The notes under the pieces were generated by a model. That model was not told the origin of the DNA. It saw only the letters and a list, made by a program, of their open reading frames with translations, and did not search any database. The translations under genes were made by a program, and so were the position numbers. A stretch of DNA of 63,770 nt, counting the filler, from Collodictyon triciliatum (Eukaryota): assembly GCA_043381765.1 (NCBI GenBank). It is 4 parts of 4 records of this genome, joined end to end, with 100 filler letters (N's around TTAATTAATTAA, not from the genome) between each part and the next. Parts side by side here need not be neighbours in the genome. Positions count along the whole stretch, not along the records: positions 37,777 to 56,523 come from JBHJMP010001345.1; 3 more parts are not named here. One strand, given 5' to 3'. Shown piece by piece: positions 788 through 51,689 of this stretch (the stretch's first letter is position 1; each line of letters begins with the position of its first letter).

Positions 788-10220
<9,433 letters not shown>

Positions 10221-11090
10221 TACATACAGAGTAATGTCCCTTGTGTGAATAGTTTGCGTATGGGGCTATCATGTTTTTCCTTCTCTTTTTAAGGATCCTC
10301 CTGTGTTTGTATTCAACGCATTTGAAATGCCTCACTTTACATAAATCACACAAAACAAAACAAAACAAAACAAAACAAAACAAAACAANNNNNNNNNNNN
10401 NNNNNNNNNNNNNNNNNNNNNNNNNNNNNNNNNNNNNNNNNNNNNNNNNNNNNNNNNNNNNNNNNNNNNNNNNNNNNNNNNNNNNNNNNNNNNNNNNNNN
10501 NNNNNNNNNNNNNNNNNNNNNNNNNNNNNNNNNNNNNNNNNNNNNNNNNNNNNNNNNNNNNNNNNNNNNNNNNNNNNNNNNNNNNNNNNNNNNNNNNNNN
10601 NNNNNNNNNNNNNNNNNNNNNNNNNNNNNNNNNNNNNNNNNNNNNNNNNNNNNNNNNNNNNNNNNNNNNNNNNNNNNNNNNNNNNNNNNNNNNNNNNNNN
10701 NNNNNNNNNNNNNNNNNNNNNNNNNNNNNNNNNNNNNNNNNNNNNNNNNNNNNNNNNNNNNNNNNNNNNNNNNNNNNNNNNNNNNNNNNNNNNNNNNNNN
10801 NNNNNNNNNNNNNNNNNNNNNNNNNNNNNNNNNNNNNNNNNNNNNNNNNNNNNNNNNNNNNNNNNNNNNNNNNNNNNNNNNNNNNNNNNNNNNNNNNNNN
10901 NNNNNNNNNNNNNNNNNNNNNNNNNNNNNNNNNNNNNNNNNNNNNNNNNNNNNNNNNNNNNNNNNNNNNNNNNNNNNNNNNNNNNNNNNNNNNNNNNNNN
11001 NNNNNNNNNNNNNNNNNNNNNNNNNNNNNNNNNNNNNNNNNNNNNNNNNNNNNNNNNNNNNNNNNNNNNNNNNNNNNNNNNNNNNNNNNN

Positions 11091-19004: not shown

Positions 19005-22000
19005 GCAACTGATTTTCTGAATGGAGACGGGGTCAATCGACTTATCTTCTTTCACCAGATATTAGAGGAGCGCGACGAAACTGGCGAAGTAAAGGAGCTA
19101 AGAGGGGTTCCAATCCTTTCACTGGCCAATCCCGATAGCGACCATTTCATCGGGACTGCAGTCTACTTCGCCCGCATGGGTACTAATCCGTTTGTTGATG
19201 TAGCATCCCTTGAATCTGATGTTAACTTTGGGGAAATCGATGCATCTCTCATCGAAAGCATGGAAACTCTGCTTTCTCAAGTTTATCATCCATTAATTGC
19301 GGCTCAGCAAGATTGGGGAATGAATTCTGAAGAAGGTGCGAAGGAATTTGTAACTGGGATGCGCAAGTTTGTTGACGGCTTGACTGAAACTGTGAAATCT
19401 CTCAACAGTGGAATTGAATTAACCAAGCCCGACAAGAAATATGAGGTAGAGAACAAACAGCCAGCATTTAATCGAGCTGCCACTGACCCGGAGGTACTCA
19501 CTCACTACGAGTATGTCCTTGAAGAATGGTGTAAACAGATGGAAAAATTGGTTACTGAGAGTGATACAGGACGAAAGGAAAGTGAAGACGCGGGGCCAAA
19601 CACGGAACTGGACTACTGGAAAACGCGTTTATCCAAATTCAACAGTATAACAGAGCAGTTGAAGACTAGAGAATGCAAGTCAGTCTTGGGTGTTTGCACA
19701 GCAGCCAAAAGCAAGATTTTAAGGCGATGGAAAACATTGGACAATCAGATAACAGACTCCACCAACGAGGCCAAGGTTTGCCAATTATAGAATCACCTCT
19801 ACACCCACCTCTCTAACTTCTCACTGCTGAATACAAATATCCCCCCCCCCCCCCCCCCCCCCCTCGCTGTTTCATTCAAAGGCTTCTAAATACAAATGTA
19901 ATATCCTTGTATCAATACTTGTATACACTTACCCTAGTCCATACCATACTCACCATCCATTTACCTTTTTCCATATGCGTCACATTCCTTATTTTTTATA
20001 GGAAAATGTCAAGTACCTCACTACGCTCGAAAAGTATATCGAACCATTATACACCGGCTCGCCTACTAGTATAGTGGACACACTCCCTGGCTTAATGAAT
20101 AGTATCAAAATGATGCACACGGTCTCTCGTTACTTCAATACGACCGATAGGATGGTGTCACTCTTTTCCAAAATTACCAACCAAATGATCAATTGTTGCA
20201 AGACTGCCATCAACCAAGGAGGGAAGATATGGGACCAGGACATCAACTTATTAATTCGAAACTTCGAAAGCTGTATTCGCCTTAATGAGGCATACCAGGA
20301 ACAATACAGAATCACAAAGGTAACCGAGAATCGAAGTAATATATGCGTATGAAACTAATTATTCTTTATGTTATCGATAAGTCAAATCTGACATACAAAA
20401 AAATCTTGGTATTTTTAACAAATCATTTTTTTTAGGACAAGCTCCTTACGCAACCCAAAGGGAAGCAGTTTGACTTTAATGAGCAGGAAATTTTTGGAAA
20501 ATTTGAGTCCTTCTGCAAAAGAATCCAAAAGCTGACAGACATATTTTTAACCATTCAGCAGTTCAGGTATTCTAATCTAATTCATTAAGGTGCTACTCAA
20601 AGTCGTTAAAAAAAAGAAAAAGAAGAGATAATCCCCGCTGCCAAACGTGCAATCATAGAGCTATTCTGTTTCTTTCATTCAGCAACTTACTATTTCTCCA
20701 TTTCTTCAAAAAAAAAAGCTCTCTAGAAGTCCACAAAATTGGAGGCATGGAAGCCATGATATCTAGGTTCAAAGTAGTTATTTCTGAACTCAAAAGAAAG
20801 CCATATGACCCGTTGGACTACAGCAAGTCCAATTTCGATAGGGACTATATCGAATTCAACAGAAATATCCAAGAGATAGAAAATTCTCTACAACTATTCA
20901 TTAATAAGAGCTTTGATACAATTACAAACACCGAACAGGTCACTTTTACTATCTATCGAATCTCTTGATGAAAAGTGCACTTTTGATGCAAAAAAGTAAC
21001 GCTTTGATTATACCCTTTATATCATAACAGGCACTCAATTTACTTCGACAATTTCAATCTATCCTGCAACGAGAGAATCTCAAATCCGACCTAGATGCAA
21101 AGTACATGCAAGTTTTCCACAACTATGGCATCGAGCTCGAAACAGTGCAAAAGATATATGAAAGGTTCTTAAACTGGATATAACCTCACACTTTCAACAA
21201 AACATATCCTATACCACAGTTTGTGCTATTATACCAAAATATACTATTCTTTCTTGCATCCTTAGCTCTATTCTGAGATAGTGAATTGTACCATCGCGGC
21301 ATCTTTTGCTTGTAGGAATAAACACAGTCCACCAACGATCAGGAATGCACCACCAGTGGCAGGTAATATAATGTGGGCCCGCCAATTGCTTCGACGAATT
21401 GAAGACCCAATGAAAAAATTTCAGGTGCTTGGTGAAATTAATCGCATGAATCAATCTGTAGATTACTATATGTTTCCTTTATACATATTACACAGTCGAA
21501 TACATAATTTATCTACACATGAGAAGTTACTATTAAGGTAAACTAAATTATTGAAAAAAAAAGGCCAACAAAAACATAATGGCTGCCAAAGACGCCAAGC
21601 GTATTGTCAAAACCTATAACAAGGTCGCTAGGGCTTTAATAGAGTTCGAAACATTGTGGCACCTTGCATGGTCGAAATCCATCGAAGCGGCTAAATCCGC
21701 ATTACAAGCAACACTCATCATTCGACACCCAGACAATGGAAAACTTTACGTCAACTTTGACAGAGAGATACTCCAGCTTATTCGTGAGACCAAGTAATAC
21801 CATTTGTAAAGACAGTAGGCATGTCACCGTACGTCTTGAATTGATATTTTTACACTTTTCTTTTCATTTTTCAATTTTTTTTTATTATTAAAATCCTAGG
21901 GCGCTTGTCAGACTAGGCATCGAAGTACCCGAAACAGCAAAAATTGTTCTCCTTCAAGAAGAAAAATTCAAATCATATTATGACCAACTGGATTATGCGC

Positions 22001-25000
22001 TGAATGAATATACCCGAGTAACTGGTAAAATGTTGCCGATGTTCAAACAAGTCTTGAAGCCTCACATTGAGGATATTGATAGAAAGCTCATGCCAGGAAT
22101 GACAACATTGACATGGACATCCATGAATATTGATGCTTATCTGCACAGGATACATACTACTTTGGCCAAAGCCGAAGGTAAAAAGCAATTTTTTTTAATA
22201 TACCTTTCTCAAAGCATAGTTGAGAAATCCAATGGTTATTTACTATTGTGTAGAACTGGTCACAAATATCAATGAAATTATGGAGAGTCGAGTTGAGCGC
22301 AATCTCAAGAGGATGAGTCGGCTGGTGCTCATTGATCTTCAGGAGTCGAAATCATACACACTCAACGAATTTGTTGCTCTACAAGAATCTATTATCCATA
22401 AAAGGTTTTCTAAGTTTTATTTACACATTCTCACTCTCAATAAATCTGACTTGAAAGTATGGGAGCGATTTTGACGCCAATCTTTTGATAACCTAGGGTT
22501 GAAGTGATGATATCCCGGAACAATGAAGTTAAAACTGCTATGGATGACATAATCAAATTGATAACCTCATATCGGTTCGACACAACAAATACCGGAGAAG
22601 GGACTGACCCCCACGAAGTCATCGCTTTGAGAGACCACTATGCCAAGTTGATGTATCTTGCCATTCTTAATTGTATCAGGTAATCTCAACTTGCCCTGCA
22701 ATTTAATAATTTTGAGCCATACTTATTGGATAACTTTAAATCTAACATGCTGTACTTAATTTTTAATTGAAAAACCTCTAAAATGAGCCACGCCATAGAA
22801 ATTCCCTGTATTCCCTCAAGAAAAGAATTGGCTCTCGTCAGTCAACTGGATTTTTGTTTGTCGAGAGACCCTTTTTTGATGTAGATGTTGAACTAACTAT
22901 TCCTGATGTGAGCATGAACCCCACCATAATCGACATTCAGAATGCCATCAATTCTGTCTCTGTCTCTATCCTAAAATCATCAAGAAATCTTCGTTTGTGG
23001 GGACAGGTGAGATATGATTCTTTTATTTTTTTATCCCAGATTGGTACACACAGATATTTTTTCATTTTCTTTACATTTTCTGCATTTCCTTCCTTGTTTA
23101 TCACAAAGTCGTTTATATTTCTTCTTTTTTCCTTCGTTTCTAAAACAGCCTATACCTGGTGTGTCTCATTTGGACACATTCTACGATCTCATTGCCCGCG
23201 ACAAAGCTGTCGTACGTATGATATTGCTCTTGACAGGAAGGTAGTTTTTATCATATGCACTATCGCTCTAGCGTTGTGTTAATCTTGGATAGTTGCTTCT
23301 TTACAAACAATTACGACAATAACACACTGTGTTCTAACAAACAAACAAACAAACAAACAAACAAACAAACAAACAAACAAACAAACAAACAAACAAACAA
23401 ACAAACAAACAAACAAACAAACAAACAAACAAACAAATCTTCACTACTCTATCGTAGCATCGAAGGGCTGAAAATCCAGGTCACCGATTTCCTCAACTCA
23501 TTCCAGCAGTATAGCTATCTTTGGAAAGAAGATATGCAGTTGGCCTATCTGGACTTTGTTCAGAACAGCCCAACACTAGATGCATTTGAGGCTGAGATGA
23601 GAAAATATTTAGGGGTTGAGCAACAAGTATCCCAGATATCGCCTATGCACGTGATTGGCGCCCTTTCACTGCACACGCAATCGCTAAAGTATTCCCTAAA
23701 AGCAGAGGCAGCCAGTTGGAAGTCTCAATACGCAAAGAATTTGCACAAACAAGCTCACGATGATTTGACTCAAGTTGTGCGATATATTGATTCATCATTC
23801 CAGCAACTCAGAAGGGAAATCAAAGATCTAGAAGACCTCCGTTTCATAATGAAAAAGCTGCAAGAAATTCGGGAGAAAGAGGCGGAGGTTGATCTATTCC
23901 TTTCTCCTGTTGAGGACATGTACACCCTTTTGTCCCGCTATGAGGTTCGCGTTCCAAAAGAAGAGAGCGAGCTGGTTGTCGAACTTCGTCCTCGCTGGAA
24001 GGCGCTTAAACAAGAATCAATCTACATCCAAGAGCAAGTACAGCAACTCCAAATCTCATTCAAGCGAGAACTGATAAGGAGTGTCAAGGCCTTTCAGGTT
24101 GATGTCATCCAATTTCGGAACGATTACGATGCCAACGGCCCATCTGCCGTGGGGTTGAAATATCAAGAAGCTATCGAACGACTCAAGTTTTTCCAAAGAA
24201 TGTACGACGAAAGGCATAGAAAATGGGAAACATACACTGCTGGAGAGGAGCTATTCGGGCTTCCAATCACTGACTATCCTGAGCTTACTCGAACGCGCAA
24301 AGAGCTGAAAGTCCTTCACACTGTATACGACCTACTCACCGACTTACTGGGATGGATCACTGCATGGGGTCAAACTACATGGAAAGATATCGATATAGAT
24401 GCCATATCACAAAAAGTAGAAGAATGCCGCACACAGGCCAAAAATTTCCCGAAACAAGTCCGCGATTGGGATGCGACAAAGGAAGTTCATAAGATAATTG
24501 GCCAATATACCGAACTTTTACCTATTCTGAAAAAATTATCGCAACCTAGCATTCGTTCGAGGCACTGGACCCAAATACTTCAAATAAATGACAAATCCTT
24601 CCGACAAGATTATGAATCAATGACTTTTGGAACCATAATCAGCTGTGACCCTATCACCCACAAAGAAGAGATCGATGAAGTGATTAAAGGTGCGGAGAAC
24701 GAACAGGTTATGGAGATAAAAATACGAAAGATAGAGGAAGAGTGGGCTGACCAAGTATTCACTTTTTCCTCATTCAAGAATAGGGGCCCTATCCTTCTGA
24801 AATCAAAAGAGACGTCTGACATCCTGAATCTACTGGACGAGAGTCAGATGTCCCTTGGAACTATGATGACATCTCGATACATCGCCCCGTTTAAAGAGAT
24901 AGTGACTTCATGGATGGTCAAGCTTTCGGGGGTTTCTGAAAGCATCGAGCAGTTGTTGCTGGTTCAATCGATGTGGAGTTATTTGGAGGCGGTTTTTACC

Positions 25001-28000
25001 TCTGGAGATATCTCTCGACAATTACCCCAGGAATCAAAACGATTCGTAAATATCGACAAGAACTGGGTAAAACTTATGAATAAGATATTTGAAACGCGCA
25101 ACGTAATTCATGCATGTGCTACGAATGATTCCTTAAGATCGCTCCTGCCTCACCTTCTCGAGCAGCTAGAATTGTGTCAGAAAAGTCTTTCTGAGTATCT
25201 TGAGATCAAAAGAATCGCTTTTCCTCGATTCTACTTTGTATCTGACCCTAATCTACTTGAAATCTTGAGCCAAGGCACAGACCCCAATAACATACAAAAT
25301 CATTTTCAATATCTCTTTGATAACATCCAATTCATGAATATTCATCCCACACTGGACAAAGCTGGTAACAGGCCTATCTTTGGGTTGACATCCTTTGAAG
25401 GGGAAATATTGAACTTCCCTGAAAAATTGATTCCCGAAGGAAGAGTTGAGGATTACCTAATCCGAATTGAGGATGAAATTCGAAAGGCCATTCGCATCCA
25501 AGTAAGAGATGTTGCCCGTAACTACCCCAGCCTCTCTGTTCAGGAGATCGTCGAAAAGTATATTGGCCAAGTCGGGATAATAGCACTTCAGCTGATATGG
25601 TCGACTGAAACATTAAGCGCAATTATTCGGTCAAAAACAGAAAAAAACATCCTTACGACAGCGTTCAAAAAATGTACCAATATATTATCTGAACTCACAA
25701 GCATGATGTGGAGGGAATCGAGCTCCTTTATGAAGGCAAAGCTGGAAGGATTATCCATCGTGCAATTTCACCAGAGAGATTGCTTCGAGGAGCTCATCAA
25801 GCGCAAGGTTAAGGAGGGGACTGATTTTGATTGGTTGAAACAGTTCAAGATGGCTTGGAAAGGCGATATGGAAAGATTAGAGGCGCAGATTCTCGATCAA
25901 GAAATTCCCTATTGCCACGAGTACGTTGGATGCAGGGAGCGTCTGGTCAATACCCCCCTTACCGATCGCTGCTATATTGCATTAACACAAGCAATCGGCT
26001 CATACATGGGAGGCGCGCCGACAGGTCCGTCCGGTACTGGTAAAACAGAGGGCGTAAAGGACCTTGCCAGAAGTCTTGGTAAATTCTTTGTCGTGTTCAA
26101 TTGTTCCGAGAGCATGGAGCCCAAGTCATTCTCAAAGTTACTCAAAGGTGTTTGTCGCAGTGGCGCATGGGTTATATTGGATGAATTCAATCGTGTTGAA
26201 CTTCAGGTGCTCTCCGTATTTGCTCAATTGTTGCACTCACTCTTCTCTTCTCTGCGTGAAAAGAAATCATCATGCATCTTCCCGGATGGTACAACTATTA
26301 AGCCCGACCCACGCTTAGGAGTCTTTATTACGATGAATCCAGTTTACGTATCAAGAAATGAGCTTCCTGAAAACATGAAGGCACTCTTCCGCCCTGTTGC
26401 AATAATAGCTCCTGATAAATACACTATTATTCGCACTCGTCTGGCCACTTCCGGGTTCCAGGACCATGTGAACTTGGCAAAGAAATTTCAGACACTATAC
26501 TACCTATGCGAACAGCAGCTCCCTAGAAATGCGTATGACTTTGGACTGAGGAATATTCTGTACATCCTACGCATAATTAGCTCGACAAGAAAGTCGGCCA
26601 TGACTCCCAGCCAGGAGGCAACCATTATATATCGCATCATACGAGACAGCAACTTGACGCGCTTGTCTCCAGACGATATTCCGATGTTCTTGTCCCTACT
26701 CGGAGACATATTTCCGTCTCTTCGACTTGACAGAATACCCAACGAAAAGATGGAGCAATCTCTTAAGAGACAAATTCTCGATTCAGGTCTCATACCTTCG
26801 CCTGAGTGGATAGAAAAAATCACTCAGATTTATGAAATTGCAAGTACTCGGTGCGGGGTTGCAGTCATTGGTCCCACTATCAGTGGAAAGTCGCGCGGTA
26901 TTGATATGCTACTAAAGTCACTCTCGGAAACAGGAGCTTCACACAAACAAATTAGAGTGAATCCAAAGTCTCTCAGCAACAAAGCACTTTTTGGGGCCGT
27001 TGACCCTACCTCTGGCGATTGGTCAGACGGAGTTATAACTACAATCTGGCGCAGGGCTCTACGACAGAAATCAAACTACACATGGATTGTTCTGGATGGG
27101 CCTATTGATTCGACATGGGTCGAAAATTTGAACACAGTATTGGACGAGAATAAATTCTTGACTCTATCAAATGGAGAACGACTCCCTTTCCAGAATAACA
27201 TCAATATACTGTTTGAGTCGGAATCGCTAGCTAATGCATCACCTACCACAGTAACCCGACTCGGGGTAGTCTCTCTTAATGAATCGATAATGTCGTGGAA
27301 ATTGCTCGTGGATGCATGGTTCAAAACTAGGAGGCCTATGGAGGTTGCATACCTGTCGCCCTACTTTGAGCTGCATATCGAAAATTTATATACCATTTTG
27401 AAGTCTGGATACACATTCATTCTACCCCTGCCATTGCCCTCATTGGTGCTAAATCTTCTATCGCTCTTGACATCTTTACTTCCCGAGACAGTTGAAACCG
27501 AATCTGTCAATGAGTTCTACTACGAGAAACTTTTCTTTTTCGCCTTGATTTGGTCCATAGGGGCAAGTGTTGACCAGGATGGTAGGATTCGTGTGGATAA
27601 GTATATCAGACAGGTCTGTGAAAACATACCGCAAACGGCATCAGAGGAGACTGTTTATGATTTTTATGTTGACGAAAATTCCAACGATTGGGAGTCGTGG
27701 AGCACAAAACTGGCGCCTCAATCAGTCTCTGAAGGGGATGCTTTCAGCTTCCATGAGATTTACATTCCAGTACCTGAAACAGCTCGTGTAACTTATATTT
27801 TGGAAGCGTACATGAAGAGAGGAAGAAGCGTGGGCATTATCGGCCCAACCGGAGCGGGCAAGACATCCCTTGTGAATCATTATTTTCGAAAGGTAGGTGA
27901 CGAGGATAGAATTTCGAAGGTCCTGCACTTTTCTAGCTCCATCAACCCTGTGAAATTCCAGAAATATTTAGAGTCATTTACAGAGAAGAGGCAAGGCAGG

Positions 28001-31000
28001 ACCTACGGCCCTATTGGAGGGAAGTCGATGGTTCTTTTGATTGAAGATGTTAATGTTTCCCAACCATTGATGAAGTACGGAGGCGATGAAAGAAATAATC
28101 CAGAGCAAGAGTGTGTTCTTGGAGATGACGATGTCATGGAAACATTAAGACAGTTGCTTGAAGATGAAGGATTGTTCAGCCTGGAACGCATGGGCGATTT
28201 TAAAAGCTTTGTTGACATCAATTACATCGCCACATTGAACCCATCTGGAAACGGGAGATATGATGTCTCAGCACGACTCAAACACCATTTAGCCATAGTG
28301 TCGATGAATGGAATGTCCCATAACACTATTGAAAATATCTATCTGAACATCACCAAACTATGGCTATCAAGTAGGTGCATATCAAAAGACATGCATAACA
28401 TAGCTTCAAGGTTGCCAAAAGCGACTATCGTGCTGATAGACAAAGTGCGAAGCAAATTACATCAAGCCGATGGTCGCTTCCATTATCAATTTAACATGCA
28501 TGATATCGCAAAGATTTTCACTGGAATCACTCAATGCACAAGTGCAGTCTTCAAGGAAACCCCATTCGTGAATTTACTCGATCTGTGGGTTCATGAATGC
28601 TCTCGAGTTATTCAGGATCGATTGATAGCACTAGAAGAACGAGAATGGGTACGCTCCACGATTAAGGCGATCTCATCAGAGCACATTGACCGCTTGTTCA
28701 CGTCAGAACTAAAATACCCCCACTTTTATCATGAAGCGCACACTTCACCTGAGTCTTCCACCAGACCAACGTCATCAGAGCAAAAAATTCAGTCAGATTT
28801 TCCTTCATCATCCTCTTCTGCTCAGCTGAATCGTGCACATCAGCGGTTTGAAAGTCAGGGTGATGCGATGTATCAGCCCATCAAAGAGTTGCCAAGTTTG
28901 GCGCAGAAATTCGAAACACTGGGAAACAAATTCTGCGAGGACGAAAGTGATCCAATTCTTCCAAAAGTGTTGTTTGAAGGAACTATTGAACTGCTCATTC
29001 GCATATCCCGCATCTTGAACACACCTCGTGGCTGCATGCTACTGGTAGGGGTTGGAGGTTCAGGGAAAAGGTTATTATCCCATTTCACCTCCTTCATCTC
29101 CGGACATGAAACTCTGATTGTACCCAGTTTAAAATCTTACAACATCGATTCATTCTACCTTGACATAAAAAAGTCATTCAAGAAAGCCGGACTACAAGGG
29201 AAGAATGTTACTATAATTGTGCCTGATTCACTCGCAAACGACTCGGTGATTATGGAAGCCTTGAATTCGTTCATCGGGTGTGGAGAGCTACCAAACCTAT
29301 TTTCCAAGGAAGAATTAGATACTATATTGAATGATATGAGACCACTTGCCAAGAAATCCAAGCCCGGCTTCATAGACACATGGGATAACCTATACAAATT
29401 CTTTATCAGCAGAGCCAGAGAAAGAATTCATACGATAATTTGTTTGTCTCCAGTTTTTGATGGCCTCTCAAGGATTCTAAAAAGCTACCCAAGCTTGTTG
29501 GTGCACTGCCAAATGGATTGTTTCACGATATGGCCTCATGTGGCCTATGACAATGTGGCATTCAAATTGCTACGAACAATGTCCTTAGATACAAGCGCGT
29601 TGCTTTTGAAGGAAATGTCCGAGTATATTGGTAGAACGCATAACATTATAGAGAAAATCACCGTGGAGTATGCATCACGCCACCGACGAAAAGTATCTAT
29701 CACATCCAAAAATTACATGAATTTCATCAGTTTATTCCAGAAAATATACTTTGAAAGGGTAAAAGAAATAGACTCTCAATACGAACGAACAAAGGCTGGC
29801 CTTGATAAGCTCAATCAGGCTGAGTTGGATGTGGAGAGAATGAAGCAAGAGCTTCAGTCGAAAGAGGTCTCCCTTCAAGAGGCTCAAAAAATATCAACAT
29901 CAATTTTATCTCACATTACAGAAAAGACTGCGAAAGCAGAAAAAAAGAAAGGTGAAGTGATGCTTGTCAAGAATGAGCTCGCTGCCGAGGCCCAGAGAAT
30001 ACAGGATGAGAGGGCAATATGCGAAAACGACCTCCTTCTCGCTAAACCAGCGTTGGATGACGCAGTTCAAGCAGTGCGCTCCATCCAGTCAAAAGATATC
30101 CAAAGTCTGAAAGCTATGAAAAATCCTCCTGAATTGATTCGTCGCATATTCGATGGGGTCTTGATTCTTTTCCGGTGCCCCATGGTCCCGATTGAATGGG
30201 TTGAGGTCAAGGGAAGACTTCTCATTAGAGATTCGTATGCAAACTCTGTCTCCTTGATAAACGATGTTGGATTCTTGACAAATATAATGTCTTATCCAAA
30301 GGACCAAATTAATGACGAACAAATTGAGCTCCTGGAACCATATCTTTCTATGGAAGATTTCAATTTTACCGAAGCAAGGAAGGTTTATGGGAGCGTGGCT
30401 GGACTATGCAAATGGATTCGAGCTTTGACGACATACCACGAACAGGTTATTTTGGTGAAGCCGAAGATGGATGCATTGTTTTTGGCTGAAGAAAAAGTCA
30501 AGAGCGCAAACCAGAACTTGGAACGCGCTTTGATGGAATTGGAAGCCAGTCAAAATGAGCTGGATAGTATGCAGGCTGAATTCGATGCGGCTATGGCTGA
30601 AAAACAAAAAATCCAGTCCTTTGCCGACATCACTAGGCAAAAGATATCGGACGTCAACGACCTTGTTCTTGGCTTACTTGAGGAGAAAAATCGATGGGCA
30701 AGTTATTCGCAACAGTTTGAAGAAAGAAAGACGAGATTACTCGGCGACTGTCTGGTAGCTGCAGCCTTTGTAAATTATGCAGGTCCTTTCAATCAGGAAT
30801 ATCGTGATATCATCTTGAAGCAACACATACTGAAAGAGTGCCAAGACAGAAAAATACCCATCTCAGACGGCTTTGACATTGCACAATTCCTGACAACAAA
30901 ATCAACTATAAGAACTTGGATATTACACGGCCTTCCCAATGATGAGCAGTCCATTCAGAACGCTATCATATCTTTGCATTCTATCACCCCGACTCTCTTT

Positions 31001-34000
31001 GTCGATCCCCAGGGACAGGGCTTAAAGTGGCTGAAAGGGGAGAACGCGGCAGTCCTCCCCAAAATATATTCTCTGACAGATAAAGGACTTATGAACGGAA
31101 TAGAAGAGTCTCTGACCTTAGGAAAGAAGTTGATATTGGAAAATATCGGTGACGAGATAGATTCGCTCATTAGTGGGATGCTGGACATTTCAGTCATGAA
31201 GAGCACTAGGGATGGATACAGCGTTGTATTCGAAAACAAGGAGGTTGAGTTTAACGAGGGGTTCAAGCTCCACTTGGTTACAAGAGCCTCAAACCCTGTT
31301 TTCTCCGCTGATATCTACTCCAAAGCGACTGTAATTGATTTCTGTGTGACACCCAAGGGTTTAGAGACGCAGCTCCTGGCTCGTGTTATTCAGAAGGAAC
31401 GTGTGGACCTTGAGGAAAAGCGCATACAGTTGCTCGAGGAGGTGCACACATATCGCCAGAAGATGGAAGAGATGGAAGAGGATATGTTGCTTCGGTTATC
31501 CGCTTCGAAAGGAAATCTATTAGACGATACCACGCTTGTAGAGTCTCTCTCAAAAATCAAGAGGGCATCCCACGAGCTGAAGGAAAAGCTGGATGTTGCT
31601 GCAAACACAGAGAGGAGGATAGAGACGTCAAGAGAGGAGTACCGCGGAATCGCCAGTCGTGGCGCAGTGATATATTTTTTGATCAACGAATTGAGCACAA
31701 TCAATTACATGTACCAGGTTTCTCTAGGGGAGTTTCTAAACATCTTTGACACAAGCATTAAACAGGCCGAAAAAGTGTCTGGCGTCACAAAACGTGTGCA
31801 GAGTATTATTGAGACACTGACCTTCAATGCAAACGTATTTGTCTCACGAGGACTTTTTGAGAACCACAAATTCGTTTGGCTCTTTATGCTGGCAACAAGG
31901 ATTGCTCTTTCGCAAGGAAGTGTTACGCCGACGGAATACGGATGCTTTCTAAAGACCGGTGTAATTCTGTCAAACGATCCCCGCTATAACAGAAGAAAAC
32001 CATTTGATTGGTTGCCTGATGCTACTTGGTTGGGAATCCTCCAGTTAAGCACCCTCCCAAACTTTGATAACTTATCTGAGATGATATCACGCAACGAAGG
32101 GTTTTGGAGAAGCTGGTTTGACCAAGACATCCCAGAGGAGATTCGTATTCCGGAGCTGGAAGACCGTCTGACTCCCTTCCAGAAGCTGCTGTTGGTGCGC
32201 ACTGTGCGAGAGGATAGGACTTTGGCATCTTCTATGGAGTTTGTAAAGCTTACTCTCGGGAAAAAGTATGTAACCAGCAATCTTCTCGACTTTGACGCAG
32301 TTTTGTCTGATTCTGCTGCCAGACGCCCTGTCATCTTGATTGTCACACCCGGAGGAGACCCTTCCATTTTGGTTGCAGAGGCTGCCAAGAAAAAGAAAAT
32401 CGAATATAGTGTATTATCTCTTGGTCAAGGACAGGATGCAACTGCTCGTAAGCTGGTTTCGTCGGAAATGGCGGTTGGAAAATGGGTCTTGCTGCAGAAT
32501 GGATATATCAGCCCAAAGTTTATGCTGGAGGTGGAAACGCTTCTTCAAAAGACACACGAAATTCACCCAGACTTTCGGCTTTTCATCACAACCATACCCT
32601 CGACTAGATTTCCATCCTCTTTACTCCAAATGTCGATCAAAGTGACAAACGAAACGCCTCAAGGGTTGAAGCACGGCTTGCGCAGGACGTACCAGCTTCT
32701 CACTCAAGATATTGTTGATTCGACTTTTAACGCAGAGTGGAGGTCGATTCTGTTTTCGATTTGCTTCCTTCACTCTGTGCTGCAGGAGCGCCGCAAGTTC
32801 GGTGCGATAGGGTTTTCAACAACGTACGAATTTAACCACTCCGACTTGATGGCTTCCCTGCTTTACGCGCGAAACCATCTCGTTGAGATGGAGCAGAAGC
32901 GGGCCCCTGTTTCATGGTCAGCGTTGAAATACACTATCTCCGAAATCCTCTATGGAGGAAAAGTTACGGATGAATACGACAGGCGCCTACTCATGACGTA
33001 CTGTGAGATGTGGCTCAACAAGCGACTCACAGAACCCAATTTTTACTTCTTCTCGCCTGTTTATACTATCCCACGGTTCACCGAGATTGCAAAGATTCGT
33101 GGAGCCATCGACGACTTCCCCAACGCAGACAACCCCGAAATATTTGGTTTGCATCCCAACGCAGATTTGACCTATCGCAACACGCAGGTGCGCTCCATGC
33201 TCAACACGCTTCTCGAAGTTCAACCGAGGGACGCCACAGTCGCTGTCCAGCTGTCCAGCACATCACGCGATGAAGTACTGGCCAAAACAGTGGAAGACTT
33301 GCTTGCAAAAATACCTCCTGATTTCAACATGGAGGACGTGAAGGAAAAGTTTAATAGGAAGCTGGGCGGTCCGAAACCAGTTAACCTGTTTCTGATGCAA
33401 GAAGTCGATCGACTGCAAGCTGTGCTCACACTTGTTCGAGGCCACTTGACGGACCTCAAAGCAGCGTTGATTAGTTCGGACGTGCTCCAGCCCGAGTTGG
33501 CGGATGTGTCCAGCGCTCTATGCGAAGGGAAAATCCCATCCGCTTGGCTGAAAATCTCATGGCCGGCAGCGAGTCTTTCGTCTTGGTTCCTTGGCAGTAT
33601 GCAGAGGATGGAACAACTGGTCACATGGCTCAACACGGGGCGGCCATTGACCGTCTGGCTCGGCGGATTCTTTAACCCGCTCGCATTCTTTACCTCGCTG
33701 AAGCAGGACGCGGTCCGCAAGAGACCAAACTTGGCCATCGAGGATGTTGTGGTTTATGTAGAAGTGCTTTCCAAGGAGAAGGATGATATTCGAGTGCCTC
33801 CTGAAGATGTACATGATTGTTCTCATCTGCTTCTTTGATTCATCCACTTTTGTATATCACAGGCTGTCCTCTTCTGTGCTTTTAATTGTAGTCATATCAA
33901 GTTCCTTTGCCGTTTTTCTTTTTTCCTACCTCCATCAGTGAATATATTCGCATCGGCTATTGCTAGTTATTTACTCGTGTGCATATCATTTCTTCTTCCT

Positions 34001-40941: not shown

Positions 40942-42174
40942 TGACAAGCCGTTATAAAACCAAACTCCATAAAGATATTCATAATTGGCGACCACTGAAC
41001 CAGCCGTCTTTTCTTCTTTCCTTGTTAAAAAAAGAAGGGGACACGGCTAGGCATCCTAAAATTTCATTCGCACAATTGAAACAGTTATATGAGCCGCGTT
41101 TGACGAGACACCATAAATTTAAAAGAAAAAAAAACAAGACATATAAATTGAACAAGTTATTGGCTCATGTTACTACGAAGGATAGTTTATTATTTGCATC
41201 TCCCTATTAATAAAAATAAAAACAATAAAAAAAAGCTACCCGTGCGATTTGCTACTGAAGCGGCTTGGTAGAGTAGTGCGAATACGCGCGCCCAAAGCGG
41301 GACAGACGGAACCCAGAGACACAGAGCAGCGNNNNNNNNNNNNNNNNNNNNNNNNNNNNNNNNNNNNNNNNNNNNNNNNNNNNNNNNNNNNNNNNNNNNN
41401 NNNNNNNNNNNNNNNNNNNNNNNNNNNNNNNNNNNNNNNNNNNNNNNNNNNNNNNNNNNNNNNNNNNNNNNNNNNNNNNNNNNNNNNNNNNNNNNNNNNN
41501 NNNNNNNNNNNNNNNNNNNNNNNNNNNNNNNNNNNNNNNNNNNNNNNNNNNNNNNNNNNNNNNNNNNNNNNNNNNNNNNNNNNNNNNNNNNNNNNNNNNN
41601 NNNNNNNNNNNNNNNNNNNNNNNNNNNNNNNNNNNNNNNNNNNNNNNNNNNNNNNNNNNNNNNNNNNNNNNNNNNNNNNNNNNNNNNNNNNNNNNNNNNN
41701 NNNNNNNNNNNNNNNNNNNNNNNNNNNNNNNNNNNNNNNNNNNNNNNNNNNNNNNNNNNNNNNNNNNNNNNNNNNNNNNNNNNNNNNNNNNNNNNNNNNN
41801 NNNNNNNNNNNNNNNNNNNNNNNNNNNNNNTAAAAGTTCGTTGGGTACTATTATTGTTTGTATATTTATTGCAGTCAACTTTCTCACCACCTCGTCCCAG
41901 CTCATATTAAAGCATACAGTTTTCCTGCATCTTTGGGACGTAATTTTTTCGTAGCCCCAGATTGGGACAACACAGAAAGGAGGAGAAGAAAAAGAAGACA
42001 GAGGAAAAAAAAAAGAGAAATTCGACAATAGTAGTCTCAGTGTCAGAAGACCGGTTTGAACGGGGGATATTCTATCAAGCAGCTTCTTACATATGATATG
42101 CGTGTCATACTTGGCCAACGATTTCTGGAACGGTCAACCCAATGCCTTTAAAAAATCAAATCGTGGGGCATACG

Positions 42175-43350
42175 CTAATGATGCATTTGGTCTTGTTGTT
42201 GAACTTGGGGCTGGTATTCTTGAACTGGGGTTCCTTGGGGCTGGTATTCTTGAGGTGGGTATCCTTGGGGTGGGTATCCTTGAGGTGGGTATCCTTGAGG
42301 TGGGTATCCTTGAGGTGGGTATCCCTGAGGTGGGTATCCTTGAGGTGGGTATCCCTGAGGTGGGTATCCCTGAGGTGGATATCCTTGAACTCCAGTTCCT
42401 TGGGGCTGGGCATCGACGATGGGGGTTGTCGGAGTATGCACCTGAGCGGTGCGGGAGTTACCGATAAAAAAACGAACAGATGTGTCAAGATTCAAAACAA
42501 ATGCCGGCATCACCAGCTCAGCGAGAAGTTCGTAATCAATTGTGATTATATGAGCAGCAAATGAAGGAACCAAGTTCTTGGGAAGAATAGCATCTTTGCT
42601 CAAGGTGATTGATTGCGTTCCAGGAGGAATGGTCTCTGGGAACTCTGAAAGTTTGTACACATTTACAGTTGATTGCGCAGAGCCCTGTGCCCTGTAGATC
42701 ACTCTCTGCCTCAAAGAAAGGCTGGCAGACAGGACCGGGCGGTCTGATGGGTTATTTACGGTAATCACCGGCTTGATCAGGTCTTCCGGTATGGCCCCGC
42801 CAACAGGAGACCTGAGCTTGCAGGTGATTGGGGCAGAAGCACACCACAGGCAGCAGATGGTTTTGGAGTCCTGGCCCTCGACGGCATTCTGGAACTTGGG
42901 GTCTCCCATGTTGTACAGACCCACGACGCGCAGTATGACTGCTGCCGTGGGGTCGAACTGCCACGCAAGATCAATGTTTGCAACCAGCTTATAGCTGACG
43001 TGGCCGTACGGCCCTCCGAAGACGGGCAGGTATTCGCGGTTTGGATGCAGCCTGAACGAGAACGGGAAGCGGTATTCTCCAGGCATGAGGGAGTCTGAGG
43101 CGCCGTCTCTGTTAGGTTCCCAGAGATGATATAGCTCCTCTATGAAGCGGCTCGTAGCTGTGTAGTGACGACGGTTTTTGCCGCTGCCGTGGCTGAAGCT
43201 TGCATGAATTACGCCAAAGAACTCTACATTGATTTTCCTGGGGCTGATTTGTTCTCGAACAATCACATGGACGTTGCCTCGGATGTCCTGGCCCGGGTAG
43301 AATATCATGCTGGGGTTTTCCAGCTCAAAGCGGATGTCTGCGTCTGGCAT
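42175..43350 (-). CDS. Alpha-arrestin (ARRDC-like; arrestin N and C domains) with a 9x GYPPQ tail, intronless
   Basis: FYPGQ.I.G.V, PGEYRFPFSF.L, G.YG.V.Y.L.A.ID..W..D, K..CCLWC.S.PI, V.NPS and I.I.Y.L motifs. The 15-bp repeat at 42251-42385 encodes GYPPQ. Confidence 0.92.
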   Translation of the reverse strand: MPDADIRFELENPSMIFYPGQDIRGNVHVIVREQISPRKINVEFFGVIHASFSHGSGKNRRHYTATSRFIEELYHLWEPNRDGASDSLMPGEYRFPFSFRLHPNREYLPVFGGPYGHVSYKLVANIDLAWQFDPTAAVILRVVGLYNMGDPKFQNAVEGQDSKTICCLWCASAPITCKLRSPVGGAIPEDLIKPVITVNNPSDRPVLSASLSLRQRVIYRAQGSAQSTVNVYKLSEFPETIPPGTQSITLSKDAILPKNLVPSFAAHIITIDYELLAELVMPAFVLNLDTSVRFFIGNSRTAQVHTPTTPIVDAQPQGTGVQGYPPQGYPPQGYPPQGYPPQGYPPQGYPPQGYPPQGYPPQGYPPQEYQPQGTPVQEYQPQVQQQDQMHH

Positions 43351-43830
43351 TCCTCACAAGCTGTCTTCGTCCAGATCCTCCTTACGCTTTCCTATTCTTT
43401 CCTAGTTCTTTGTTTATGTTGTTTCTTCTGATTCCAATCTGCCTTCCTTCGACGGCCCGTCTGTCAACTTATAACGTATTCCTCTGGGCGTTTCCCACGG
43501 GGGAATAACATATAAGCATGACCGTTACTGCCATCACCGACAAAGGCAATGAAATTGTGGGCAATTTGAGATGTCCGTTATTTGTGGCTGTAAGCTGTAA
43601 CGGTTTTTACATTACTGGAATTTAAGCGTGATTTTCATAAAGGCTTAGACATGGAATGCGATATTTATAATCGTATAAACTAATCACACACAATTACTCT
43701 GCTTCACAACTAGAGTTAACATCCCAGTGAAACAAGGATTCCTTTCTCTTGGCGGAGTTGCAAAAATGGAGTTCACAGAAACTGCGTTTGATTTTATCAT
43801 CTTAGGATTAGGCGTGAAATTTATTTCTGA

Positions 43831-43955
43831 CTAGAAGGGGTATACAAATCGAAAGATTGGTAAACTTGGTCTGTTAATATCCAAGGTCTCACCACTTTTT
43901 TCACAGAGGTCGTGTAGTGGCGAGGGCTGCCTGGAAAGACCCGACAGCCTGTATT
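43831..43955 (-). ncRNA. Putative Fanzor omegaRNA scaffold
   Basis: Four stems directly 3' of the RuvC-III coding region: GGCTGTC/GGCAGCC, CTCGCCACT/AGTGGTGAG, CTTGG/CCAAG and TAC-C-AATC-tttc-GATT-T-GTA. Loop-1 GGGT is complementary to 3'-terminal ACCC (pseudoknot). Confidence 0.6.
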
Positions 43956-45258
43956 TTAAAGAGAGGTGTTTTTTTTTTTTTGAAGGGTTAAAAGAACTTT
44001 GCTGAGAATAGTATAAGCGCTGTTAAAGTCCCTTGCCAATAATACACTTTTTTTGCTTTCTGACCGATTGCATTCTTTACATATGAGACATCTATACACC
44101 TTTTTTGAATTTCCTTTCAGTGTCATATACTCCAGTTCTTTTTTGGAGTTGTAGCACATCTTGGAGGTTCAATATTCATTTACACTAACCGGTTCAAAAC
44201 GTTTGGATAGTATTTTTTGTAATCCCCTTCCGATTTTTGGTATAAAATGGTTCATCTGAGATTTTCTGCTCCTGTCTCCATATGCCAGTACAAACATCCT
44301 TGCCAATTGTCTTTTCGATTCGGTCCATAGACAATTCTTCACTTCTTTTTGTATTAACACACTGTCTCCATCTCATCTTTCGAAAAGTTACTTGTTAATA
44401 AAATCTGGAAAGTTCTGTCTGGTATCTTGATTTCATAGATACAAATTTTCGAATTTTTTTATAATCGACCACGCATGAATTATGTTTACTCAGTCCTGTC
44501 TCTAAATCGATTAAATATACTCTTGATGTCCCAAACCGTTGATTCTCTTCAAAGGTCCTGAGACCAAAAGAAATAGCACATTGCAAACCTGTTGCCGTGC
44601 ATATCTTGCTGCTCGTGAGTCGATGGCTAGAGCTCGTTCAGTCTTCTATTTTTCTTTCCCTTTATTATTCGTTTCAAAAAGCTCGCTGCGTCTTATTATT
44701 AATTTGTTGTACTCACGGGACGGTGGCAGCTGGCGTCTTGATCGTCGGTGTGTCTCGGTGCATAATCTGTGTTGTGAAGGATGTGGTAAAGTGACCTATA
44801 CGCTCTCTGAGTCGGCTGCGTCGGCCTTCATGGTTTGCGACGGTCAATATGCGTTCCACGGGGCAGGCCTGTCGCGTCGGTCTCGTGGTAGGCGGTGTTT
44901 GGGCCTCTCAGGATCCCTCTTTCCGATCGCTTGCTTGTTTTTTTTTTTCGGCTTCAGGATGTGGTGGGTTGGGAGAAGGAAACAACACCAGTGTAGTAAT
45001 ATTATTTTCTGGAGAATGTGTCTTTTTCTCTGAGTGTTTATTGTTCTCAGCAAAAGAGACCTTATCCTCATATTGTGACTTTTTTTTATTGCTCCTCTCG
45101 AGTCTGTCTCTCTCGGTGTGATTACCACATTTATTCACATTGTGAGCTATAGAATAGATCGACCTTGGAAGCTTCTTCACACAAACAAACCAATCCTTGC
45201 AAATCTGCATATTTCGCATGTTTGCTCCTTGACCCTTTCCTGCGTCTCTACTGGTCAT
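43956..45258 (-). pseudogene. Fanzor (TnpB-like RNA-guided RuvC nuclease) pseudogene with stops, frameshifts and deletions
   Basis: Motifs in order across frames: N-terminal WFVCVKKLPRSI..IAHNVNK; HFTTSFTT; RuvC-I ALAIDS (Asp codon 44619-44621); L..HNS..VD..K..FV..K...L..FY*..FRKMRWR..VN..RSE; VLAYGDRS..QM....PKIGRGL.K.L.KRF; RuvC-II VSVNEY*TSKMC; zinc ribbon CYNS..CKEC; RuvC-III LARDFNSAYTI. Confidence 0.88.
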
Positions 45259-45448
45259 CTCTTGTAGGCTGGAAGATGTGAGACCTTCGGGCCGTATAAA
45301 GTCTGGTCATACACAAGCGTAATTCAGGGCGGTTGGTTGAGAAGGGATTAAGTTTTATTTATGCATAAAGGTAAAATATTTAAAGTGAATATAAAAAAGT
45401 GTATGTCGAACGAGATTATAGGTGCGATTCGTATAATATGCGATTCCT

Positions 45449-46007
45449 TTATTTTTCATCCAACTGAAAATACGACTCCAGCTTTTTGGTTATGTTAGTA
45501 GGGTTGGGAAATTTCTTCCTTTCCAGTTTAGAGTATAGTGCCTGTTTGATGAAGAAATGTGTTTTTTTTTTAACTTTGATAATGTGCATAAAATGGCGAT
45601 AGTTGCGAAACAAGAAATATGTCTAATTAGTGGATTGGAGCAGGGCGAATTGGATGTCAATAACATTATCGAATTGGTTTGGCATACATATTTCATAGGA
45701 CCATTTTTTGAAACTAAAGTGACTTCAAAGCTGCCAAGCCTAGGCAGTCTTTTCCTAGGATTCGGGTCTGCGCGTCTAACTTCCAAGTTTGGAAAAGATA
45801 TCGTAATCTCGCTGACAACTACGAATATTGAAGGAATAACTCAAACAAGCTATGATGCTATAGCAATAACGTAGTTGGATTGTAAATATAAAATGGAATG
45901 AATTGTGTTGTGAGACAATAATAATTTTTCCGTCATTCGATTCAAAGAATATCTTAGGCAGAGTAGAATATAACAATAATAACAATAATAACAATAATAA
46001 CAATAAC

Positions 46008-46090
<83 letters not shown>

Positions 46091-48007
46091 GCTTGATTAC
46101 TTCCACGGAAGGCCTTATTATAAGATTCAGGAACATGTCGAGTTGTCATTTGATGTTCTTCGCAGTTGAGGCTTTTTGTTTTTGGTTGAGATTATTTATA
46201 GATAATTAATTTTTGGAATCACCACACATACCATAAGATGCCGGACTAATTATGCCATAAAAGGGACTATACGAGAAACTGAAGCTTATATATAAACATG
46301 TAATTCAAACCAGTGTTCAACGGTTATATAAAACAGCTCTGAGACTTCCTCAGGGTCCAGACGCCTCTCAAATTTATCAACCGAGGCCACATCCCCTGTT
46401 GTTCCTTTGGAAAAGAAGCTAGTGACACTGTCGCATTTTGACAAACCACCAGCTGTTGCGGATTCAACAGAGGGTCGGTCGCTCTATTTGGTTATTCAAT
46501 TTATTTATTTATTTGCTAGAATGATAAGCAGATCATCATTTATATACAATAAATATTCTCACTTCAGGAAAATCTTGGTTTGGCGCAGAAGCTTCCTGAA
46601 CAGGAATATCTGCTTCCTGGATGAGAGGCTGGGCTACTGGAAGGTTTGGCTCCGACGGTTTACTCTGTTTTGTCTCCTCTAATATCTCTTCAACACTCTT
46701 CGGATTCCCTTCCAAATGGAGGTCAGTTTCTTTTTGGCGGTCATGAAAGGATTTCCATATGCCGTATGGTATATGTGAGATTTTGTTTTGGTCTATGTAA
46801 AGTTGCTCCAGTTGAGTCAGAGACGAGAGGGATTCGATGCCATGACTGTCAACTCCGCATCCAGATAACTTTAGAATCTTAACCGACGTTAAGTGATGCA
46901 TATTTGCAGGTAACCTCACGAGTGGATTCTCGCTAACGTCGAGTATTTGGAGAGAATTCATGCACGATATATCTTCAGACAGAGATGTTAATCCATTCGC
47001 CCGAATGGATAAGGATTGTACATGAGAAAAGGGGCTGAAGCAAAAGGGCTTTGGCGGGACGTCATCCTTTCCTGTGCGTGGTGATTGACCTCCGGCCGGT
47101 ATAGAGAATACGTGGTCTAATCGAACGTCGATAACTGACTTTGGCAGTATCAAATCATGAGGTATTTCTGAAAGGGGATTGCCACTCATGTCGAGAACCC
47201 TGATGTTGGGGAGAGAAAGGACGGCTTGTGGTATGGATGTGAATCTGTTATTCCGGATGGTCAGTTCTAGAATGAAAGGTGCTATGTGTGAAAAGACATC
47301 TGGGAGTTTGGATAGTCCGTGGTTATCAAGCAACAGTCGACCGTCCCACTTCGACTCCATCTCCAACTTCATGCAGTCCATGATGTATTCTTCTACAGAC
47401 TTGATTCTAGCCTCCATGAGCTCATCCTATGGAAAAAAAAATATCGTGATTTGAATTGGGAGTGCATATAAAGAGAAATATCAAAAGATAAAGTATTACT
47501 TGACCGATCAGAAAAGACTGGCTTGTCACCAAAATTATGTGCCGTAAACCGAGACTACAAAACAACAAGAAAAAACAAGAAAAAACAACAAGAAAAAACA
47601 AGAAAAAACAAGAAAAAACAACAAGAAAAAAACAACAAGAAAAAAACAACAAGAAAAAAAACAACAAGAAAAAAAACAACAAGAAAAAAACAACAAGAAA
47701 AAAACAACAAGAAAAAACAACAAGAAAAAAATGAAAAAGCGAAAGAAAAAAAAGGGCAAGAGCAGAAAGAAATATTCGACACATTATTTAGGTCGTAAAT
47801 TACATATTTGAGTCTAGCTTCAATATCAGACAGGTCTTTGATGGACTTTGACCGGTTGGCAAACTTTTCCATCAAGTGATTGAGCTGCTGATCGCTGGCG
47901 GAGGGATCGGCAAGGAGCTCTCCAAGAGACTTATCCAGATCCGCAAAGCGGGCCTCTGCATCCTCCAACTGTGCGAGCGTGTCTTCCATATTCTTATGCT
48001 GGAGCAT
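45449..48007 (-). CDS. Coiled-coil + leucine-rich-repeat protein with C-terminal Rdx-like domain (EHC-LNC-EEH motif)
   Basis: Exon 1 is coiled-coil-like. Exon 2 has LRRs (LELTIRNNRFTSIP, LDMSGNPLSEIP, LSIRANGLTSLS, LDVSENPLVRLP, LYIDQNKISHIP). Later exons read FYITVEHC|LNCEEHQMTTRHVPESYNKAF..RKRLPRLGSFEVTLVSKNGPMKY|ALYSKLERKKFPNPTNITKKLESYFQLDEK*, with stop at 45449. Confidence 0.85.
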
Positions 48008-51143: not shown

Positions 51144-51689
51144 TTGCATCAAGCATAATCATCTGCTATCGCTTCTGTATCAGATTTCGGAAACCCTTTC
51201 TTTTTTTTTTTTTCCTTTTAAAAAAAGAACATAATAAACGATTTCCGAGCTGATAAAAAAGTCGGTACTGTGCAGTTTCATTCTATAATTTACCACGTGA
51301 CAGGCATACTATATTTAATTACTATTTAAATAAATAAAAAAANNNNNNNNNNNNNNNNNNNNNNNNNNNNNNNNNNNNNNNNNNNNNNNNNNNNNNNNNN
51401 NNNNNNNNNNNNNNNNNNNNNNNNNNNNNNNNNNNNNNNNNNNNNNNNNNNNNNNNNNNNNNNNNNNNNNNNNNNNNNNNNNNNNNNNNNNNNNNNNNNN
51501 NNNNNNNNNNNNNNNNNNNNNNNNNNNNNNNNNNNNNNNNNNNNNNNNNNNNNNNNNNNNNNNNNNNNNNNNNNNNNNNNNNNNNNNNNNNNNNNNNNNN
51601 NNNNNNNNNNNNNNNNNNNNNNNNNNNNNNNNNNNNNNNNNNNNNNNNNNNNNNNNNNNNNNNNNNNNNNNNNNNNNNNNNNNNNTTCC

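Follow-up and report, generated by a model that had tools for sequence, protein, structure and literature searches.

The window (the whole 63,770-nucleotide stretch of Collodictyon triciliatum DNA that was analysed, filler included) holds on its minus strand what is very probably a pseudogene fragment comprising the C-terminal ~30% of a Fanzor1 gene, from RuvC-II to RuvC-III with the zinc ribbon. Fanzor1 is a eukaryotic, transposon-borne homologue of TnpB. The first-pass annotation had read 43956-45258 as a Fanzor relic split over several short ORFs, and this was borne out for a narrower stretch, with the type now given as Fanzor1, because the relic pieces match a profile of full-length homologues at E 1.6e-16 to 2.4e-4 and a second such profile, A1, matches solved Fanzor1 structures at 4.6e-80 or better. 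The window is eukaryotic and the relic is flanked by ordinary cellular genes, one arrestin-like and one with leucine-rich repeats (LRR). Self-blastn of 43400-45700 found no second copy of the relic within the window. The features are collected in Table 1.

Table 1. Features of the relic and its surroundings, in window coordinates (X1-X4, public runs described in the text)
Feature	Position	Strand	Remarks
Axonemal dynein heavy chain	23234-33838		3534 codons open in one frame
Arrestin-domain gene	42175-43353	minus	Arrestin_N, E 3.8e-23 (Pfam)
3' flank	43850-43955	minus	Common to other copies beyond the stop; X1 and X3 contigs reach 43849-43878
Profile-matching piece	43959-44168	minus	Profile 526-592, E 1.6e-16, 57.6 bits
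The same, last piece of the relic	43959-44168	minus	TS motif, zinc ribbon with 3/4 Cys, RuvC-III RD; ends in TAA 43958-43956 after 13 A
In-frame TGA	44169-44171	minus	Between NEY and TSK, at profile position 525
Profile-matching piece	44172-44372	minus	Profile 482-524, E 1e-11
Part with VLAYGD..QM..P..G.GL and catalytic Glu	44172-44291	minus	Profile 482-524, E 1e-11
TTT run with one-base insertion	44292-44294	minus	Frame shift; frames of tblastn HSP and profile switch here
Profile-matching piece	44197-44394	minus	Profile 452-489, E 1.9e-7
Part FRKMRWRQCVNTKRSEE..IEKTIGKD	44295-44394	minus	Frame as upstream of the shift; profile 452-489, E 1.9e-7
In-frame TAA (FY*QV)	44395-44397	minus	GAA (Glu) in most other copies
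Profile-matching piece	44398-44637	minus	Profile 411-449, E 2.4e-4
Most upstream profile-supported part (LIDLETGLSKHNS..SRFY)	44398-44514	minus	Profile 411-449, E 2.4e-4
Stretch of uncertain protein placement	44515-44604	minus	Same repeat family by nucleotide likeness; covered by X1-X4 contigs
Non-Fanzor stretch	44605-45106		A more abundant repeat of another kind, next to the relic or inserted into it; contains 'ALAIDS' (44625-44642)
LRR gene	46536-47426		Flanks the relic

Homology and upstream extent of the relic

A 609-position profile was built from 39 full-length homologues and searched against every one of the window's 3491 stop-to-stop pieces. Only four pieces matched it, collinear on the minus strand and together spanning profile positions 411-592, and the next best piece of the window stood at E 0.8. 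When stops were read as X, the two relic frames scored 112.1 and 57.6 bits and the remaining window 6.2 bits at most. The same read-through, with stops as X, was used as a phmmer query against 1.84 billion representative proteins and gave 189 matches with E<=1e-3, of which 41 had E<=1e-10 and the strongest 1.8e-34; many of these were proteins of 590-700 aa aligned by their C-terminal ~150 residues. Since E-values down to 1.8e-34 were obtained against so many proteins, chance likeness is excluded, and it is confirmed that the four pieces belong to one Fanzor-type protein. With residues 418-498 of one homologue of 634 aa, P0004, tblastn likewise matched the window in the region of 44398-44514. 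A single reading frame across 43959-44645 was considered and rejected, because tblastn and the profile put the gene upstream of 44292 in another frame.

The profile search of 43956-45258 that had been suggested was thus significant with the homologue profile, but not with Pfam, where the relic pieces gave sub-threshold matches only. Cas12f1-like_TNB (PF07282) reached 16.2 bits (E 0.012) against a cut-off of 26.3, and the matches to CENP-B_N and to the PRDM9 zinc finger were about as weak. Among the longer homologues, eight matched PF07282, only one of the eight above the cut-off, and two more matched nothing. No solved Fanzor structure was found by phmmer with the relic alone.

It had also been proposed that five minus-strand fragments join into one collinear protein in which all three RuvC catalytic positions survive, the first of them being the Asp in 'ALAIDS'. 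Four of the five fragments are indeed collinear in the 609-position profile, but the fifth, 44908-45258, matched neither that profile nor any of 73 relatives by tblastn at E<=50. Nowhere in the window did profile positions 1-410 find a match that rose over the noise, which was at most 6.2 bits, whether by the profile or by relaxed tblastn, and between 44515 and 46200 neither method gave any Fanzor protein signal upstream of 44514. The RuvC-I Asp (in DPGK, profile position 365, D383 in SpuFz1) therefore has no counterpart among the matched positions of the relic, and since nothing is detectable ahead of profile position 411, some two thirds of the gene, RuvC-I included, are missing or unrecognisable. 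According to the published description of Fanzor1 families, 5' truncation and internal deletions are common among them (PMC3627910).

The other copies of the element bear on where the relic ends. Contigs were drawn from four public runs, X1 to X4, of which X1 and X2 represent two organisms that differ very little from the window in their single-copy flanks (3 differing letters over 423 bases; 10 over 624). The likeness of these copies to the window breaks off at 44604/44605, as is seen from loose ends at 44605 in six X2 contigs and one X3 contig, and contigs of the more abundant second repeat begin at 44602-44645. Within that second repeat the letter at 44720 differs from the window in 20 (X1) and 26 (X2) contigs, and no part of 44605-45106 matched the profile or Pfam.

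That the relic is instead a whole-length decayed Fanzor across 43956-45258, with 'ALAIDS' supplying the RuvC-I Asp (44625-44627) and 44908-45258 the remains of the N-terminus, is in our judgement unlikely. 'ALAIDS' does follow the hydrophobic-x-D pattern that the family shows in IVGLDPGK, and from it to the VDY motif downstream there are ~53 codons, as compared with 62 in P0004; moreover, one X3 contig splices 44604 to 45107, so that homology might resume upstream of a 502-base insert. However, neither the piece with 'ALAIDS' nor 44908-45258 had a profile match even at E<=10 among the 3491 pieces, the read-through upstream did not rise above the noise of the window, and the matches given upstream by the 73 relatives in relaxed tblastn (E<=50) were scattered, non-collinear and on both strands. 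In addition, the point at which the other copies part from the window and a different repeat starts lies ahead of 'ALAIDS', and since the true frame upstream of 44292 is a different one, the frame of 'ALAIDS' (44642-44625) is not that of the gene. This motif is accordingly dropped as RuvC-I, and two of the three catalytic positions are present, namely, the Glu in VNEY and the Asp in RDFNSA.

Between the last profile-supported codon and the divergence point lie the 90 bases at 44515-44604. Our best guess, a weak one, is that they belong at the TDGxxCSLLF strand, ~50 residues ahead of RuvC-I; residues 304-316 of the homologue P0058 align to 44589-44551 at E 0.068, which is not significant, and the profile gives -2.3 bits. 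If this placement is right, then RuvC-I has been deleted. There is a slight chance that a very decayed N-terminal remainder lies upstream of the relic.

Motifs kept, lesions and other copies

The motifs VLAYGD..QM..P..G.GL, NEY*TSK, CYNS and RDFNSA were seen as first described. The Fanzor1 Glu is present (GAA 44177-44175, in VNEY) and aligns to the column E530, which is invariant in 37 homologues. The in-frame TGA stands one codon past it (44171-44169), where P0002, the nearest database copy, has Arg, and is followed by an intact TS motif at 44168-44163. In the zinc ribbon, which reads C-Y-N-S ... C-K-E-C, the first Cys (44156-44154) and the last two (44081-44079 and 44072-44070) are kept and the second is replaced by Ser (44147-44145); the ribbon therefore has three of its four Cys and falls short of a full C4, in agreement with the earlier reading that its first CxxC had decayed to CYNS. 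The RuvC-III RD is encoded by AGG GAC at 44033-44028, aligned to the invariant D581 column. Among the other conserved residues, the Gly of AYGD is kept, the Trp of GDWS has become Arg, and the Asn six residues after RD has become Thr.

The open reading frame is broken at three places, by the TAA, by the TGA and by one additional T in the run at 44292-44294; with one T fewer at 44292 the reading becomes GKDVVLAYGD, which is the family consensus. The copy had been called dead on account of in-frame stops, frameshifts and internal deletions. The two stops and the frameshift support this, but not a gene of full length reduced solely by internal deletions, because no more than positions 411-592 of 609 are detectable.

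A live or domesticated gene that goes on producing a Fanzor-derived protein, with its stops and frameshift due to assembly errors or introns, is very improbable here. The frameshift lies within a T homopolymer, a typical site of error, and could be an assembly error, and introns are possible in Fanzor genes according to the published survey (PMC10530073). Both stops, however, replace single conserved columns amid conserved residues (FY*QV and NEY*TSK) and are therefore not intronic. Further, the upstream two thirds and the start codon are absent, and one zinc-ribbon Cys and a conserved Asn are lost. The locus is also drifting, because a contig of a related organism on 44078-44402 has 11 other letters and one gap.

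The relic is one decayed member of a multi-copy, diverged repeat family in closely related organisms. On 43000-46000 there were 216 contigs from X1 and 237 from X2, mostly 80-95% alike (adding up their depth does not give a copy number), and as many as 15-18 distinct contigs in X1 and X2 overlay a single position of the relic. In these closest organisms the flanks are represented by single near-identical contigs, as against the many diverged ones over the relic. The expectation that this copy marks a family thus held, at least for the two closely related organisms, which have many diverged copies, and for freshwater metagenomes. As for the lesions, one base less at 44292 was found in 1, 2, 1 and 1 contigs of X1 to X4, respectively, and at 44397 the plus-strand A was read as C, which turns TAA into GAA (Glu), in 10, 12, 5 and 1. 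Since some other copies are without the extra T and most are without the TAA, both lesions are private to the window copy or its orthologues. Contigs ~97% alike over the relic itself were present in X1 (43726-44081) and X2 (44078-44402), from which the insertion is probably older than the split of these organisms.

Beyond the stop, the other copies of the relic's own family share ~80-105 nt with it. This 3' flank is possibly a transposon end or a guide-RNA region. It showed no likeness to the conserved 3' end of the more distant relatives described below, since an nhmmer profile found nothing in the window and Smith-Waterman scores against shuffles gave z<=2.0, and Rfam on 43000-46500 gave nothing better than E 0.15. 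Inverted repeats of 30 nt, as in Spu-1 elements, were not found around the relic; a 15-nt inverted pair (87%) at 43883-43897 and 45273-45287 is probably due to chance.

Assignment to Fanzor1

Profile A1, made from 37 full-length homologues, was searched against solved structures and matched SpuFz1 (E 2.8e-94, profile positions 7-593), Parasitella Fz1 (E 8.4e-94) and Guillardia Fz1 (E 4.6e-80). The sole further matches were LaTranC at 4.5e-4 and 7.1e-4, and no TnpB or Fanzor2 chain among the solved structures was reached at E<=1e-3. P0004 on its own matched SpuFz1 (8gkh) over nearly its full length at E 9.2e-37. A small profile combining the relic with the four fragments closest to it matched Parasitella Fz1 at E 4.8e-7 across RuvC-II, the zinc ribbon and RuvC-III, and the SpuFz1 chain at E 0.1 only, the likeness to the latter being remote. 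A best match to an unrelated RNase H-fold family, which had been named as the outcome that would speak against a Fanzor, did not occur, the solved matches being Fanzor1.

The catalytic residues of SpuFz1 are given as D383, E541 and D606 (PMC10432273), and their counterparts D372, E530 and D581 are among the columns that are invariant in the 37 homologues; the relic retains the last two. These columns also agree with the published motif D-X(125,275)-[TS][TS]-x-x-C4 zinc finger-X(5,50)-RD, to which the same account adds a Gly and a Glu for Fanzor1, the Glu preceding [TS][TS] being E536 in the numbering of Bao and Jurka (PMC3627910). The homologues have the Fanzor1 traits described in PMC3627910 and PMC10530073, namely, a length of ~600-700 aa and a Glu immediately ahead of the TS motif. 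As judged by sequence likeness, then, the family of the relic is Fanzor1 and not TnpB or Fanzor2. The probability that the relic is a prokaryotic TnpB or a Fanzor2, or that it resembles some other RNase H-fold or zinc-ribbon protein by chance, is negligible, for although the generic Cas12f1-like TNB is the only weak Pfam domain and CENP-B_N and the PRDM9 zinc finger match similarly weakly, A1 matches three Fanzor1 structures at E<=5e-80 and otherwise only LaTranC, the neighbouring genes are eukaryotic, and the relic finds its relatives at E-values down to 1.8e-34 among 1.84 billion proteins.

Comparison with known systems shows what this copy has lost. SpuFz1 of Spizellomyces punctatus (PDB 8gkh, 9ceu-9cez) belongs to the same family; the relic keeps the counterparts of E541, D606, the TS motif and the zinc ribbon (three of four Cys) but, unlike SpuFz1, is without a counterpart of D383 and without the WED and REC domains, and it has two stops and one frameshift. 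The Fanzor1 of Parasitella parasitica (PDB 9cf0-9cf3), the best solved match to the small profile, is intact, with ~750 residues beyond the fusion tag, whereas the relic is broken and comprises the last ~180 aligned positions. Bacterial TnpB (IS200/IS605, ISDra2) and Fanzor2 share the superfamily plan, their motifs following in the same order as D ... [TS][TS]-x-x-C4 ... RD according to the published description (PMC3627910), but the profile did not reach them at E<=1e-3, and the length of ~600-700 aa and the Glu before TS set the family of the relic with Fanzor1.

Intact relatives and what the relic means

Intact relatives had been predicted to exist elsewhere, and they do. When metagenome contigs were scanned, 34 loci with 35-54% identity came up, and 16 of the 34 have full-length open frames of 615-700 codons that cover the whole profile. 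The closest intact relatives of the relic show 48-53% identity over ~95-110 residues, and no intact relative that was found exceeds ~54%, over the last third. In 12 of the 34 loci the Fanzor gene is adjoined by a transposase gene with DDE_3 and HTH domains (Mariner/IS630-type), and in the four of these where the frame was read (L007, L019, L020 and L029) the transposase lies upstream on the opposite strand. Five of the 34 come from viral contigs of IMG/VR, of which one is labelled as a giant-virus MAG; these contigs include two of 254 kb and 173 kb that are gene-dense and low in GC and encode a capping enzyme–cap methyltransferase fusion, ribonucleotide reductase and Hsp70. The last ~160 bases of the relatives are conserved and close with a ~30-nt motif ~50 nt past the stop, after which the flanks diverge. 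This strongly conserved 3' scaffold ends in '...GGTGTAAA' and contains covarying hairpins, with compensatory changes in 7 of 15 predicted pairs, as would be expected for an omegaRNA.

Mariner-borne and virus-borne Fanzor1 as well as conserved structured 3' regions of Fanzor1 have already been published (PMC3627910, PMC10530073). The transposase neighbour, the giant-virus contigs and the conserved 3' end, which are useful to miners of compact editors, all fit these accounts. The 12 metagenome loci with a transposase neighbour share this trait with the Mariner/Tc1-associated Fanzor1 of large DNA viruses (for example PGv-1, likened here by its description in Bao and Jurka 2013, PMC3627910). In contrast to those virus elements, the relic has cellular flanks, and the window holds no trace of the relatives' transposase (best tblastn E 1.7).

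According to the published work on SpuFz1, an intact Fanzor1 takes its guide RNA (omegaRNA) from transcription of the 3' end of its own element, and DNA that matches the guide is cut by one RuvC site, composed of an Asp, a Glu and a further Asp. By analogy, the intact ancestor of the relic would have worked in this way, and the present copy would be unable to cleave because it is without WED/REC and the RuvC-I Asp, is interrupted by a +1 frameshift as well as two nonsense codons, and has lost a Cys and an Asn. The history most consistent with these findings is that a Fanzor1 transposon copy inserted, probably before the related organisms diverged, and that another repeat would later have truncated or interrupted the relic at 44604/44605, although the order of these events may have been different.

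Thousands of Fanzors have been catalogued and several Fanzor1 enzymes solved and characterised, according to PMC10530073 and PMC10432273. The relic is a further example of this well-described family and on its own is of little weight. Rather tentatively, it may belong to a lineage-specific Fanzor1 subfamily that has intact active copies in this intron-poor flagellate or its close relatives, with a guide-RNA scaffold differing from the one that ends in '...GGTGTAAA', and that was perhaps acquired via giant viruses with Mariner-type Fanzor1. What the relic does provide is a marker that this lineage hosted a multi-copy Fanzor1 transposon, and since other copies in close relatives are without the extra T and the TAA, an intact nuclease, together with its guide RNA, could be recovered by searching full assemblies.

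The repeat beside the relic and its surroundings

A second repeat, distinct from the Fanzor relic (the dead, 5'-truncated Fanzor1 pseudogene fragment), shows up in the contigs of X1 and X2, two public sequencing runs that represent two closely related organisms. Summed contig depth is maximal within this repeat, and at window position 44720 an alternative letter was found in 20 contigs of X1 and 26 contigs of X2. The repeat is more abundant than the relic, which it adjoins or interrupts. Comparisons with Pfam, Rfam and Fanzor sequences gave no match to it. A 15-nt inverted repeat brackets the relic together with this foreign repeat and is probably due to chance; it lies close to the 3'-side point where other copies lose likeness. 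Upstream of the relic, 146 bases of the window are skipped in the orthologous X1 and X2 contigs (one contig each), and this is an indel between the window's organism and these relatives. A long microsatellite was left out of the contig comparison as a repeat.

The window contains 1922 N in ten runs, one of which (41332-41830) sits 0.3 kb beyond the downstream end of the arrestin gene. It also carries an axonemal dynein heavy chain gene, whose first piece holds DHC_N1 and whose second stays open in a single frame over 3534 codons; this suggests an organism with few introns, with flagella or cilia, and with the standard genetic code.

Features of the window and their positions
Feature	Window position	Details
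Inverted repeat	43883-43897 / 45273-45287	15 nt, 87% complementary
Second repeat	44605-45106	Peak 44717-44817
Indel	45540-45687	146 bases
Microsatellite	45966-46098	(AAT)n / (AATAAC)n
Axonemal dynein heavy chain gene	19005-19790	DHC_N1 piece
Axonemal dynein heavy chain gene	23234-33838	3534 codons
N runs	3256-3368, 10389-11091, 41332-41830, 51343-51685	Plus six runs of 44 bases

Nearest protein and nearest intact relatives

The top database match to the relic, P0002 (136 aa, 62% identical), is a gene call on another decayed copy. P0002 and the relic have in common the out-of-frame N-terminal text QKEV.NCLWTES, and in P0002 the reading frame is lost across the AYGD region while CCSC, VDEF and RD are retained. 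The closest intact relatives, at metagenome loci L007/L035 and L020/L039, are on gene-dense, low-GC contigs of 254 kb and 173 kb, which also encode a capping enzyme-cap methyltransferase fusion, a ribonucleotide reductase (RNR) small subunit, Hsp70 and a helicase. IMG/VR includes both contigs, and one record name bears a giant-virus MAG label.

Adjoining transposase and conserved 3' end

A Mariner/IS630-type transposase gene (DDE_3 and HTH) adjoins the Fanzor1 gene in 12 of the 34 loci, namely L006-L008, L014, L019-L022, L025 and L029-L031. In L007, L019, L020 and L029, for which the transposase frame was read, the gene lies upstream and on the opposite strand. L019 and L020 have in common a unit of about 3.3 kb at 96% identity, with unlike flanks.

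The final ~160 nt of the Fanzor elements are strongly conserved at the 3' end, CGGCGTTT...GGTGTAAA, which lies ~50 nt beyond the stop in L006, L007, L014, L017, L019, L020, L021, L029 and others, where protein identity among relatives is just ~50%. The CGGCGTTT pattern is present in 16 of the 31 loci examined. Covarying hairpins upstream of the 3' terminal motif overlap the ORF end in the metagenome Fanzor loci, and the flanks diverge immediately past this motif. The conserved 3' end of the relatives looks like an omegaRNA scaffold combined with a transposon right end.
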